From Saccostrea cucullata (Eukaryota), in assembly GCF_032062105.1 (NCBI RefSeq), contig NW_026928448.1, forward strand, positions 186,001 through 250,000: 64,000 nt of DNA, in the 5' to 3' direction. Under the pieces are notes generated by a model. That model searched no databases, had not been told where the DNA came from, and saw nothing but the letters and a program-made list of their open reading frames with translations. Of this stretch, positions 20,764-52,557 are shown one piece after another (within the stretch, counting starts at the first letter, position 1; every line of letters starts with the position of its first letter). The translations under genes and the position numbers were made by a program.

Positions 20764-21889
20764 ATGTCACAGATCCCTACACCTAAGGAACTGGATAAAG
20801 ACATTCTTCAAACAAAGCACAAAATTTCATTGTTCAACACACATGTACGGAATTTGAAAGAAAAGCGGGAAAATGATCACGAAGTGTATGAAGAAGACTT
20901 ACTTGATAGTGCAAGTGTAAACAGATTAATCCCAAAACTCTCCGATCTAAAACTGGAAGTGGAAAAATTAGAATTAAACTTGCAGAAATTCAACGAAATT
21001 TGCAAGCAAGGTTTGCTACCAGGTAACTTTTCATCAGCACTCTTATGTTAACACTTAAAAATTGTTTTTGAAAAAAGTCGGTGTCCTCATAACATTGTAA
21101 TTCATTATCGTTGTAAAGAAAGAGATTGTTAAATCTTTGATTTCATACAGGTGGAATATCTACCACTCCGATTCAGGAAGAGGGATCTCTGGACAAGGTA
21201 TGAGTAATATGCAATGAATACAAATTTAAATTTATGACATCGCTTTTTATGTAAATAACTGTTACGTGTAAGTTATTCTCCATTTCACAGTTTGACTCCT
21301 CAGAAATGGTCACAAAAAGAAATCGGCAAGGTACTCTCTTCGATGATAATTAACAAATCAATCAATTTGAACAAGTTCTGTTTTATTTCATCTAATGTGT
21401 CTTGTACTTTTCAGTTGCTCCTCATCCACCCTCTAAAACAGACAGTGGAATTAGTATCGGTATGGACGAAAGATTATCCAGACCAGGTAACTATGGCAAT
21501 AATGGTGGTTATGAGTAAGGACATACTTCTGATTAAAAAAAAATAGAAAATACTTTCATTAATAATTGAAATAATTCAAATTGTCTTATAATTTCAGATT
21601 CCATCGCTTCAAACCGGTCTTTGTCCACTGTATCTGAGGTATGTTATCCAATAATCTGTAGATTGTTGTAAAACAACGATACGTATTATCGATTTAACAA
21701 ATTTCTCACTGATATACTTTAACTTTTCAGCCTTGTGAGTCTGATGATCCAAGCTGTCCATTTAGAAGAAAAATGTCAAAACGAACAGAGAATCTTCTCA
21801 CCAAACAAGCCAAAAATGCTTCCAGCCGACGAGTGGCCAAAAACGACAGCGACAAACCAATGTCTCCAGGTAGATCTTCAAGCCTTTGA
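20764..21889 (+). CDS. Uncharacterised small protein, family member D (~205 aa; helical N-domain, KTDSGISI, ends SSSL)
   Basis: Exons 20764-21022, 21151-21197, 21291-21330, 21415-21486, 21598-21638, 21731-21889 (618 nt) with canonical splice sites and an open frame. AATAAA near 22395. N-terminus similar to the genes at 47531 and 50775. Confidence 0.8.
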
Positions 21890-22781
21890 ATCTGCCCCTG
21901 TGTATATATGCATGTGTCAATAATATCAAGAGGATCCCATGAGGAACAAAGTTTCTCTACTACTAACTTACCTCTAAGAAGTGCAAGGGCGGTTTTTTTT
22001 TATCAATTGCAAGAGACAGATAAAAGTGCATTTGCTCCAGTTGACATTGGTATAAAACTATTATATTACGTACGAGCCTAGATATTGCATATAAATGTCT
22101 TCCGAAGACTTCCACTTCCTCAATTTAAATGTTAACAGATAGAGACATTTACTATTCAAATACTTAAATTGTACTTAGAAGAGAACATTAATTTATAGTG
22201 AATGTTTTTGTGCTTGTTATCTACATGTATAGTCTTTGATTTATCAACTTTTTTACATTAATTATTATTCCTGGAACAAGTATGTCATGCATACAAGTAT
22301 ATGTAGTGGTTGTGTGTGCTTATGGATGTGTATTGTGTTTATTTTATTTTTTTTCTGGGGATAATTAATGTTACATGTATTTACAAAAAAGTGCAATAAA
22401 TCTAGTTGTTAACCTTATATTTTTTCATGTATCAATCGAACATGATACACTAAATATAGATGCATTCAATACATTCAAGTACATAATTAAGAAATTAATT
22501 GTGCAGACACAAAACAATTAAAGTTAAACTAAAAAAGGAAAAAAATTGAACGATTGAACATGTCGTCAATATTTGATGGCCGTGGTTATTTTTAACTAGA
22601 TTTGTAAACGAAATCAGGGAAGTTTGTGTGGGTATACCCATTATATTTTAGAGTCAACTGTTAGTCACTTACGTCCACACAAACACGTAACAGCGCAAAA
22701 CATACCCTATTGGAACAGGATAAAGGGTAATTAAATTGCTAGTATATAACATTTAAAAGTTCTTCATTTAATGTGGTGCCC

Positions 22782-23000
22782 ATGGGGTGCAGTGGTTGGA
22801 GCGTTTGCTTGATAACGTCGCACAGTAAACAATTAATCCTTACGTCGTAGGTATGAATCCCACTGCAAGACGCGGCGACTGTTTTTTTTTCGGAGAACTG
22901 TATAAACCAAGGTCGCAGTAGATGCTGTCCTGTAAAGGTCCTTCACTGCTCAGAGACCTTAAGTTCCGAGTACAGGCTCTGAATTTGCAGTTCACTTCTA
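22782..23000 (+). mobile_element. tRNA-derived SINE
   Basis: Head gcagtggttggagcg ... ggtatgaatcccactg, body gtataaaccaaggtc...cttcactgctc, similar to the 24438 copy. Confidence 0.65.
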
Positions 23001-24437
23001 GAGAACATAAAATATTCTACTAATAATTCACAGAGCAGTGTTTGAAATAATACTTTTGAGAATGAAGAAGGTGAAGATGAATATTGTTAAACCTACAAAC
23101 AATACAAAACTGTAAATAGAACCCAGAATTTTAATAAGTGAAATAAGTTGTCTAAAGCTACAAGGATATCTCCCATTTATTGGAGTATCTTTCTTTATTA
23201 CTAAAATATGTTGATATAACTTTATATACTTGGTACATAGTAAGTATTAAAAGCACAATAATGAACATCTTGTAACATTTAGCAGTGATTCATTAGAAGA
23301 AGATTATCAGTGTTCTTTTAACACTTTTGAATTATTGCTTATCTTCATCCTAACACAATTGTTAGTTGTTGCATACATGCAAGTAGCTGCCAGTTTCTTC
23401 AATTTGTCTTTTCCTCAGATGATACTAAAATATTTGTCTTAAAGAAGTTGGTTTTCCCTAATTTGGAAAAAAAAACATACCATTTAAAAACGAACTACTG
23501 TACAAAACGATAACGTTGTCCTGTTTCTTCAACATACTATTGAGAAGTTTTTTTTTTTAAGAAAATGAAGTAAATTTTATGGAATGAAACTGCAACTTAG
23601 GCAAATTGCATCTCCATTAAAACTACAGTTAATATGTGTTCATTGCTTCAAGGAAAAGATCTTTTTATGGGAATATTAGGAAAACATGGGGCTCAGCTAG
23701 GTAGATATAACAGGTAAACAGGAGATGCTTTCTCGTCACTGGGCACCTGGTCCAATCTAGTGTCTTACGTCCTTTTCACAGATCTGTTTTCTTTTTCTCT
23801 TTTTTAATTTCATTTTTAGATCGATCACAGTTCGTTATTTCACTTTGTTTATAAACAATGGAATTAAGAAAGAAAGAAGTGTAAACCACTTTCACTTTCA
23901 CTTTAGCTCAGTTTGACATAGTATTTTCTTTTTTGTTTAAATAACAAAACGTTTTAATGGTAAAGTAGAAATTGTAAGACTATTTTTTAATCTTCAAACA
24001 ACAAGCTAAATCTTTTTGAAAATTATATGAAAAGCGCTTTGCCATGTTTTAAAAACATTTTAATATTTTCCTACTTCAAACATGATCAAGAAAGGGGAAA
24101 TATTTATCTATTAAAGTCTTCAAAACTAACACATGTGAAAAATATAATTTCAATCATTAACACTGACTAATGTTGAATTCTAAAATCCTAATTTAATGAT
24201 AAATAGATTTCACATAAAATTTCCAATATGCAAAAATATCATTGACCTTGAATAAGAATTGTTTTCTTTTTTTGAAATTAAAAACAAAAAATGACCTTTC
24301 TTTTTTATTTGTATATATAAATTTGAAATCTTCCTGTTTACATCACTTGATTCAAACACAAATGGTGTCATAAAAATGTGGACGTCTTTGTGTTTTCTGT
24401 GCAATTGGTAACTCTGATTTCATGAACTCTGTTTAGT

Positions 24438-50345: not shown

Positions 50346-50774
50346 GAATACATTTTGAATAAGGTCAACTTTTGAACAGGCATGTGTTTGGCAAATTAGA
50401 TGCTGTTGCAGGTTTTCCAACCACTAGTATCCTCTTATATTCATAATTTTGCAAATGCTACAGAGGTAATTATGATTTCATTTGCAAATACACCTCATCA
50501 TTAGGTCATGTTGTACCAAAATGTTGCATAAAAATTAATAGAACATGGTTTCAAAATTTCTTTACTTTATTGTATAGAACAAAGAATTTTGTACCAATCT
50601 TCGTACATTCTAGTACTTTATAGAAAATAAAATCTTCAAACACGGAACCGGAAATTCATAAGATTATATTGTCGAGCAACTTAAAACGGCATAACGACAA
50701 GCCAGGAAGAAAATGAATTCGGACATCATAAAACACCTGCTGAACATAAAGATAGGCGGTCTCAAAATTCTAAA

Positions 50775-52364
50775 ATGGCGTCTGATGGATACTTAATCCC
50801 GACTCTGCAGGACATTGAGAAATCCGTGTTGGAACTCAGTAGTCAAGTTCGATTACAGAGTGCTTTTCTAGACTGTCAAATAGAGAAGTTAGAGCAAGAT
50901 CCAGACACAGATTGTGTAGTGAGTGAAAACGAGGCTGAGAACATTCTTGCTCGGACTAGCAGTCTACGAGCTGAACTGGAGAAATTTAAATTGAATTTGA
51001 AAAAGTATCAAGAAGTCACGAAAGAAAAGAGAAATAGCAGTAAGTTGGTGGTTTTGATTATTTTTTGGTGCCAAAATTTCAATTTTTTGCCTCTGTGTTG
51101 AATTCATCACATATTTTTTGTTTAAAATGATATGGCATTCTGTAACTCAAGAATGTAAATTTTAAGATAGCAATGATAAATATATCGTAAAATTACAATG
51201 TTTAATTAAAGTGAATTTTAACATTTCGCGTTGGTCTCCTGGCAAGTTGGTCAGTGACATTTTTATTTTTTTTTTTACACAACTAGCGACATGATAAAGA
51301 ATTGAATAATACTCTAATCGGTTTATTCGTTTATTTTAAAATTATACAACATCCTAATGTTTGATAAAAATGAGAGAAAAAAAGTGATTAACATTTCCAG
51401 GTTTACTGTTAATAAATCGCAATATTTTGAAAAAAATCTTATTAAGACCTTTTGGACCTTATCAAACCTGACAGGTTCGCTTAAGAGATTACCTTAGATT
51501 TGTTTAAGGGAAGAAAAAAAGAAAGGTTCCTTGTAATGATCATATTTCATGTTAATACACCAAATCAATCACCATTTCTTCCTGGATGCATTGTTAATGT
51601 ACCGCAAATATTTCCTATCATTTAAACAATTCACTAATTTCTAAAGAGTTTCTTTTGTGTATCTTTCAGGTGAATCGAACGCAGACAAGAACGAGGACGA
51701 GGAAGATTCTCCAGACAAGAGTACAGGTATAGAACGCCCAAAGACTGGGTATGAAGTACGCCTTAAATGTTATTATAGTCAGACATCTCTTTCGATTTTT
51801 TCAATTTGAATTTGTAACTGTCTTATACTAATTTGAATTAAAAATTCTAATTTTTTGTAAAGAATAATATGTCTCCCATCAGTTTGACTTTCCAGTTTTG
51901 TAATGTTAGTACATTTACTTCTGCAACAATCAAGCTTTGTGTTAATTGTCAATTATGATAACCTAAGATACATATGCTCTTTAAGATTTTCCCTAGCTCT
52001 TATTTTTTAATTTTATTAAAGAATAAAATATAGATAAAAGATATACTGTAGTACGGAAGCCCGTTGAGGCCAGGTCAGAGAGAGAAATATTTTTTATTGC
52101 GTTTAATCGCAATAATTATTGCGATTAAACGCAATAAAAGATATTTCTCTCTCTGAACTGGCCTCAACGGGCTTCCGTACTGTAGATATACCAGTAGATT
52201 ATATAGCTAAAGATATAGACATTTTAAATTATAACCTTTAGAAAGCATAAAAATGTTTCCTTTCTTTTGTAGATGACCTTGAATTCAATGTAGACAGTGA
52301 CACAATAGTTGCACAGCCCGACTCAGTTTCATGTAATACCTATAAAATAATCACAATTACAATA

Positions 52365-52407
<43 letters not shown>

Positions 52408-52557
52408 ACCATATAATAATTAATTAAAATGTTTGTTTCAGGTATACCTGAAAAGAAACCAAATGGAACTCCACAAGAAAACGAGGACTATAGCGCAGTG
52501 GTTACAATAAACGAGTCATCATCAGAACTACTAGACAAGCTTAGGATATCAACTTAA
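50775..52557 (+). CDS. Uncharacterised small protein, family member F (~165 aa; acidic tail)
   Basis: Exons 50775-51039, 51670-51726, 52273-52332, 52442-52557 (498 nt). LIPTLQDIEK...LRAELEKFKLNLKKY aligns with member D IPTPKELDK...LKLEVEKLELNLQKF. Confidence 0.75.
52052..52179. mobile_element. 128-bp near-perfect palindromic IS3EU-like MITE in an intron of gene F
   Basis: TACGGAAGCCCGTTGAGGCCAG...CTGGCCTCAACGGGCTTCCGTA with 6-bp TSD CTGTAG (52046-51, 52180-85). Confidence 0.88.

Follow-up and report, generated by a model that had tools for sequence, protein, structure and literature searches.

We examined a 64,000-nucleotide window of the genome of the oyster Saccostrea cucullata (contig NW_026928448.1, positions 186,001 to 250,000 of the forward strand; positions below are those of the window), in which three plus-strand genes, here called D, E and F, encode small proteins with a common N-terminal domain followed by a tail. 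The locus runs from minus-strand BCAP-like genes through D, a further BCAP-like gene (C), a broken TIR-like exon, E, F and a fibrinogen-domain gene to PGAP1. Gene D (20764..21889, 205 residues) has six coding exons (20764-21022, 21151-21197, 21291-21330, 21415-21486, 21598-21638 and 21731-21889; intron phases 1, 0, 1, 1, 0), gene E (47531..48531, 116 residues) has four (47531-47755, 47875-47911, 48357-48407 and 48494-48531), and gene F (50775..52557, 165 residues) also has four (50775-51039, 51670-51726, 52273-52332 and 52442-52557). An initial annotation, made from the letters alone, had described the domain as one exon per gene, and it does lie wholly within the first coding exon of each, at 20764..21009 in D.

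The peptides quoted in that annotation all lie on the plus strand, those of D from 20764 and of E from 47531; the LIPT peptide of F is at 50793, its ATG is at 50775, and its stop codon ends at 52557, where the annotation had also ended the family. On splice-site inspection all 11 introns are GT-AG. Joined by coordinate, the exon models are letter-for-letter the RefSeq Saccostrea cucullata proteins XP_062615909 (D; P0001), XP_062615910 (E; P0010) and XP_062615934 (F; P0021), all named 'uncharacterized'; RefSeq models are themselves predictions, so this match is one of two predictions agreeing.

Reality and distribution of the family

D, E and F are intact genes and paralogs of one another. BLASTP between the full-length proteins linked D with E (E = 1e-10), D with F (E = 4e-8) and E with F (E = 7e-5). 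Because coiled coils match one another by composition, we also ran a leave-one-paralog-out test, in which hidden Markov models (HMMs) built from two paralog groups scored the third alongside 300 heptad-preserving shuffles of each sequence. All 18 domains outscored every shuffle of themselves (15.6-55.8 bits for real domains versus shuffle maxima of 6.8-12.5); the exon-1 domains are homologous beyond coiled-coil bias, and the small three-member family first proposed on inspection holds. No further paralog emerged from 13,596 six-frame open reading frames (ORFs) in ~0.4 Mb of fetched DNA or, near-identical copies on contigs C23684 and C11719 excepted, from protein searches of the genome.

Spliced transcripts and purifying selection had been suggested as checks. 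In other oysters, E ortholog protein spanning exon junctions was found on 195, 120 and 51 Logan contigs shorter than 1.5 kb, and junction-spanning forms of F and D on far fewer short contigs; forms reading through from exon 1 were recorded separately. We infer that the junction-spanning forms derive from spliced transcripts, the types of sequencing run behind these contigs not being visible. Compared with its second copy on C23684/C11719, F shows 6 nonsynonymous and 13 synonymous differences (a nonsynonymous-to-synonymous ratio, pN/pS, of 0.13; Fisher p = 9e-6), with none nonsynonymous and three synonymous in exon 1 and flanks differing by 6-10%. F is under purifying selection; for E the same comparison did not reach significance. 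Neither outcome named as refuting the initial annotation arose: no characterised family gave a confident match, and spliced forms occur alongside selection on F. Two metagenome scans (529 and 443 candidates) yielded no confirmed ortholog DNA. The two contigs that carry the second copies overlap each other at 99.7% identity over 1.9 kb and repeat window positions 37905-54154 at 81-94% identity with large indels. They are probably the other haplotype, and the extra E and F genes in RefSeq are therefore likely alleles, not paralogs.

A HMMER profile search of 1.84 billion representative proteins, one full profile round, gave 18 matches at E ≤ 0.001. Nine bear, or cluster with, an oyster name, seven have a domain almost identical to that of a named oyster protein, and two (P0069 and P0071) carry no organism label; word-seeded protein searches returned solely oyster-named or unnamed proteins. 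Every named profile match is an oyster, which supports an oyster-restricted family, absence elsewhere being judged at this sequence sensitivity; the lineage-specific domain envisaged in the initial annotation stands at the limit of sequence detection. In a 23-row tree the paralogs form three clades, with support of 98/97 for F, 100/99 for E and, more weakly, 86/77 for D. The E and F clades each hold Saccostrea, Crassostrea, Magallana and Ostrea, and the D clade holds Saccostrea, Crassostrea, Ostrea and two unnamed rows. Because the three clades span oyster genera, the triplication likely predates Saccostrea, Crassostrea, Magallana and Ostrea. In S. echinata, O. edulis and C. virginica the longest contigs recorded for D, E and F are equal in length, which suggests that the three genes share a single sequence there.

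Two individual proteins deserve separate mention. E is duplicated in Ostrea edulis (P0076 and P0120), where neither copy has the N-terminal IP motif or a lysine ahead of the DSGI motif, although DSGI itself is retained in both. In Magallana gigas, a 713-residue 'GPI inositol-deacylase' (UniProt K1PQS1; P0006) starts with a whole F protein. The likeliest origin of K1PQS1 is a gene model that joins F to the adjacent PGAP1, because later models give F alone and PGAP1 lies downstream of F here too; the entry could mis-propagate the PGAP1 name onto the hairpin family. Twelve identifiers tied to the family went unmentioned in the main text of the accessible literature, a scope that leaves subscription journals and supplements outside. 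As a named entity the family is new, although helical hairpins that bear short linear motifs and are confined to one taxon are of a familiar kind.

A predicted two-helix hairpin

The AlphaFold2 (AF2) model of F places helices at residues 11-41 and 51-83 around a 9-residue loop, with a mean predicted local distance difference test score (pLDDT) of 87.6 and a predicted template modelling score of 0.66; the model of D has the same arrangement (residues 7-36 and 49-84). The exon-1 domain is predicted to be a two-helix hairpin, as had been proposed by eye. Across 18 sequences, column statistics reveal hydrophobic positions that form a regular stripe along both helices; the heptad assignment is our reading. 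Several conserved positions fall off this packing stripe (in F numbering L27, 89%; A30, 83%; S62; E67; and L73, 94%; 18 sequences), which suggests a second, possibly binding, surface. A homodimer prediction for the F domain, run without an alignment, returned a score of 0.04 (mark 0.32), which speaks neither for nor against a dimer.

The initial annotation could not assign the domain to a characterised family, and neither could we. The best Pfam hit for D exon 1 was HR1_TOCA (PF25610; E = 0.019, 15.7 bits versus a cut-off of 27); over 15 members nothing in Pfam was significant, and HR1_TOCA recurred in only 1 of 15 (E = 0.59). The antiparallel two-helix hairpin that is a feature of HR1 and HR1_TOCA is present here in prediction only, from AF2 and from hairpin-type structural matches. 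Foldseek gave no match at E ≤ 0.001 in PDB or in BFVD, and a VIA structural search of 48,161 chains peaked at Z 6.5, with none reaching Z 8. A PDB profile lead to a dynein regulatory complex coiled coil faded from E = 0.011 with the first profile to 0.41 with a deeper one; against the PDB, the deeper, 18-sequence profile returned chance coiled coils as its top matches (E ≥ 0.1). Generic antiparallel helical hairpins (HR1, the bMERB domain of EHBP1, 6zsh, EsxB, 4iyh, and prefoldin, 1fxk) likewise consist of two long helices and a short variable loop, and match at Z 4.8-6.5. None of the 48,161 chains reaches Z 8, however, and these matches have identities of 1-16% and are unrelated to one another; the likeness is therefore one of common arrangement and supports no family assignment. 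The fold is common, and the family itself is real and unnamed.

It is distinctly unlikely, in our judgement, that a known family of structural hairpins or coiled coils, such as SKA2, prefoldin, HR1 or a meiotic central-element protein, includes this domain as a very divergent member and that the tails are incidental. The leads towards this are weak and point to different families: HR1_TOCA at the sub-threshold score above, an SKA2 cluster at row 8 of 10 in the Atlas (template modelling score 0.75, short of the bar for naming and on a par with bacterial hairpins that are unrelated), and Atlas prefoldin clusters with a feature score of 0.77, where Atlas scores below 0.9 count as leads only. The SKA2 profile (PF16740) matched none of the 15 members at E ≤ 1 and nothing genome-wide, D, E and F included, so that the SKA2 slot is not visibly filled by another gene, a point in favour of this explanation. 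Prefoldin profiles (PF01920 and PF02996) also matched none of the 15 at E ≤ 1. Prefoldin carries one or more beta-hairpins between its two helices, and the AF2 models of D and F have no beta-strands there. A structural family would also leave the invariant tail motif described below unexplained.

Short motifs in the tails

The tails had been called disordered. The AF2 model of D is consistent with this over most of residues 88-158, where pLDDT is below 50, and adds one predicted late helix (residues 170-188) that went unmentioned. The earlier account is also incomplete, as the most informative signal lies in the tails, with their DSGI, PxQE and PDZ-type end, and in the BCAP-like neighbourhood. 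We spotted the tail motifs by alignment inspection with no pre-set test, and the shuffle fractions given here are descriptive.

A DSGI sequence resembling a beta-TrCP phosphodegron lies in a phase 1-1 exon of both D (21441..21452) and E (48383..48394), in each case 26 bases from the acceptor. It occurs in all 13 full-length D and E rows, two of them near-copies, and in none of nine F rows, and in D it falls where pLDDT is low. It is the sole invariant stretch common to D and E tails (4 of 27 gapless columns in an 11-row alignment), and arises by chance in 0.2-2% of shuffled tails. The beta-TrCP consensus is DSG, two or three residues and then S, T, E or D, with listed variants in NRF2, CDC25A and TAZ, the last a substrate without the second S/T/E/D position (PMC10317156; here and below, papers are cited for the portions available to us). 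Among five D orthologs, four match DSG-xx(x)-[STDE], the remaining one reading DSGIS, as in NRF2; the DSGI-x-hydrophobic-D form of D resembles CDC25A, and three E rows read DSGIG, like the DSGLG of TAZ (PMC10317156). Allowing one spacer residue, 9 of 13 D and E rows have a second S/T/D/E after DSG. Lysines lie within 25 residues upstream of DSGI in 9 of 11 D and E proteins, a beta-TrCP D-domain exon is present in this genome, and a GSK-3/beta-TrCP/Nrf2 axis has been reported in a bivalve (PMC13080398). Known substrates (NRF2, CDC25A, TAZ/WWTR1 and IkB) likewise have DSG followed by a hydrophobic residue within a tail that is disordered and rich in serine (PMC10317156); unlike them, D and E have no DNA-binding, catalytic or ankyrin domain, and the unassigned hairpin is their only folded part.

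The invariant Asp-Ser-Gly might instead be a caspase cleavage site that frees the hairpin from the tail. An Asp followed by small residues suits caspase preference, and in E the site comes directly after the folded domain. Yet the invariant hydrophobic residue after Gly is explained by beta-TrCP binding and not by cleavage, and the three positions preceding Asp are variable, with frequent occurrence of Lys, which caspases disfavour; we regard cleavage as highly improbable.

Viral beta-TrCP mimics (rotavirus NSP1, vaccinia A49 and HIV Vpu) are likewise small or compact proteins with a short DSG-hydrophobic motif close to the C-terminus, and exploit a DSG-hydrophobic-S form (PMC4324316). By analogy E, perhaps with D, could be a host-made decoy that occupies beta-TrCP, stabilises IkB-like proteins or the BCAP-like neighbours and damps NF-kB signalling. 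E is barely more than a hairpin with DSGI near its C-terminus, the two Ostrea E proteins keep DSGI with no lysine in the 25 residues upstream, and four neighbouring genes bear the same motif class. The upstream lysines in most D and E proteins speak for substrates instead, and a decoy role seems quite improbable. D and E also differ from the viral mimics in being host genes with introns, kept as three paralogs with F across oyster genera, and in having no ligase domain.

D alone adds two further motifs. Its PIQE (21168..21179) matches the major TRAF1/2/3/5-binding motif Px(Q/E)E (PMC6125299), is invariant in 5 of 5 D orthologs (PIQEE in four) and is absent from E and F; PxQE arises in 1-3% of shuffled D tails. 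D ends in S-x-L plus stop (21878..21889), a class I PDZ-type end found as S-x-[L/I] in 5 of 5 D orthologs (four L, one I). The general S/T-x-hydrophobic end is present in 2 of 6 E and none of 8 F proteins, and 3-6% of D shuffles produce it. Class I PDZ ligands tolerate a C-terminal I, and TANK, a further point of comparison, has a coiled-coil architecture. An L/F form is described for the C-terminus of class I PDZ ligands (PMC8244488). Like TANK-type TRAF adaptors, D is a short protein whose N-terminus is helical and whose disordered tail bears a PxQ TRAF motif. It has no detectable homology to them, carries Px(Q/E)E where TANK has PxQxT (PMC6125299), and adds the degron-like motif and the PDZ-type end. 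A PP2A-B56-type LxxVxE pattern in 3 of 5 D proteins arose in 9-23% of shuffles and was left uncounted.

The BCAP-like neighbourhood and a proposed signalling role

BCAP is an adaptor of TLR and PI3K signalling. At least five BCAP-like genes with TIR-like, DBB and ankyrin-like parts form a tandem cluster, at 928-12517 and 32348-36573 on the minus strand of the window and at ~163000-182000 on C10585. A fifth, longer gene lies ~20 kb upstream of the window, and the upstream member, on the plus strand, has a long tail with YxxM-type motifs. All four DBB matches in the genome are on this contig. Gene B (5413..12517, minus) has TIR-like, DBB and ankyrin-like parts at 11975-12517, 9977-10276 and 9483-9734 and is divergent to D; gene C (32348..36573, minus) has them at 35953-36573, 34478-34882 and 33980-34369. 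D, E and F have no match to DBB or ankyrin, and the hairpin HMM has none to the neighbouring BCAP-like exons.

Of the five intact BCAP-like genes, four carry a DSG-hydrophobic motif in a predicted exon that follows the ankyrin one, DSGL in B (5413-5424, minus; the exon is predicted, not transcript-verified) and DSGFSAS in C (32348-32359, minus), compared with two such matches in 164 kb of control DNA. These motifs are possible beta-TrCP degrons. Derivation of the D/E exon from the BCAP-like one is unsupported, the flanks agreeing no better than background (fractions 0.25-0.58). Because the BCAP-like flanks are unlike the D/E exon, we take the two motifs to be independent, though of one class.

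The closest pair among the BCAP-like genes is B and C, with 49% identity in the TIR-like exon, and D and E are interleaved with them, an arrangement compatible with a joint duplication in which a divergent B-D unit gave rise to C-E. No non-repeat DNA common to the two units was found in support. The segment that 14.6-14.8 kb and 46.5-47.0 kb have in common, considered as a bidirectional promoter of both units, proved to be a high-copy repeat (1,370 candidates), and the idea was rejected.

Between C and E, a broken BCAP-like TIR exon (39712..43209, minus) is disrupted by stops and frameshifts in each of the two assembled copies. In this contig a 3.1-kb insertion with 76-nucleotide terminal inverted repeats (39992-40067 and 43037-43112) also splits it; the insertion is absent from C23684 and contains a nested foldback of 21-bp units (40182-41145). 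A gene with a fibrinogen C-terminal domain (PF00147, E = 8e-20) occupies 53505-54150 on the minus strand, between F and PGAP1. Two tandem single-exon ORFs of 414 residues, ligand-gated ion channel-like by eye, lie at ~147800-152400 of C10585 (L025:1806-6444, minus). A second, distant TIR-like and DBB-like gene pair (C7895:854053-878353, also on C1694 and C9774) shares 25-36% identity; no ankyrin-like exon, DSG motif or hairpin gene was detected nearby, and no hairpin paralogs were found beside the TIR-DBB genes on these three contigs.

We tentatively favour, with less than even confidence, an oyster-restricted family whose hairpin likely docks on a partner and whose D and E tails are likely phosphorylation-controlled beta-TrCP degrons, the proteins serving as short-lived signalling adaptors, probably in immunity. 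The hairpin would then be the interaction module that the initial annotation imagined, a role we also infer, with the conserved off-stripe hydrophobics (L27, A30 and L73 in F numbering) forming a binding face. Phosphorylation of the DSGI serine would recruit SCF(beta-TrCP), and upstream lysines would be ubiquitinated. D, the fullest member, would also contact a TRAF2/3-type protein by way of PIQE and, with its C-terminal end, a PDZ scaffold; E would be a minimal hairpin-plus-degron form, and F, which has no degron, the stable member. In the weakest step, all three would tune the same TLR/TRAF/PI3K-type immune signalling as the surrounding BCAP-like genes. Related observations exist elsewhere: BANK1 binds TRAF6 and MyD88 (PMC8151866), and in the Pacific oyster Bcap4/5, which may or may not be the genes of this locus, are markers of an immune-like cell cluster (10.64898/2026.05.15.723513).

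Several points weigh against this reading. The orthologs are non-independent samples, so that shuffle fractions cannot be multiplied. Selection on E is not significant (8 nonsynonymous and 6 synonymous differences; pN/pS 0.40, p = 0.10), and D, with no second copy in the genome, falls outside the test. Only one of eight E rows fits DSG-xx(x)-[STDE], and four of eight have no S/T/D/E within three residues after the motif; two Ostrea E proteins lack an upstream lysine; and F, which makes up a third of the family, has no DSGI, its tail retaining a V-x-x-P-[DE]-S pattern. Conservation is broad across the D tail (32 of 112 gapless columns) and the loose TRAF pattern [PSAT]x[QE]E appears in 21-45% of shuffled tails, and the invariance of PIQE is therefore less singular than that of DSGI. 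Among the neighbours, BCAP-like gene A has no DSG motif, beta-TrCP goes unmentioned among human BCAP partners in the available part of PMC6937578, and D, E and F are linked to the BCAP-like genes by position and a common motif class only.

One alternative is that these are degron-bearing adaptors in a non-immune pathway (development, shell, gonad or stress), placed beside BCAP-like genes by an accident of local tandem duplication. Pathways of many kinds use beta-TrCP degrons and PDZ ends (PMC10317156), shell-matrix genes are among those expressed in the cluster that Bcap marks (10.64898/2026.05.15.723513), and no promoter element common to the genes was found, their sole shared upstream sequence being the high-copy repeat. 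We nevertheless consider this explanation unlikely, given the TRAF-type motif in D and the interleaving of D and E with the closest BCAP-like pair. A bolder version of the immune reading is a long shot: the genes would encode oyster-made beta-TrCP decoys and TRAF tethers, within and co-duplicated with an expanded BCAP-like cluster, in which D and E vie with IkB or the DSG-bearing adaptors of the BCAP-like cluster for beta-TrCP and thereby determine how long NF-kB/PI3K signalling lasts, as a host counterpart of viral degron mimics.

The trio is conserved across the main farmed oyster genera under names that RefSeq leaves 'uncharacterized'. If the adaptor reading is wrong, D, E and F would be one more lineage-restricted coiled-coil family of a kind common in animal genomes. 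If it is right, they would form an oyster-specific control layer on innate immune signalling, with three concrete motifs to mutate, and the same locus also points to a candidate beta-TrCP degron in oyster BCAP-like adaptors.

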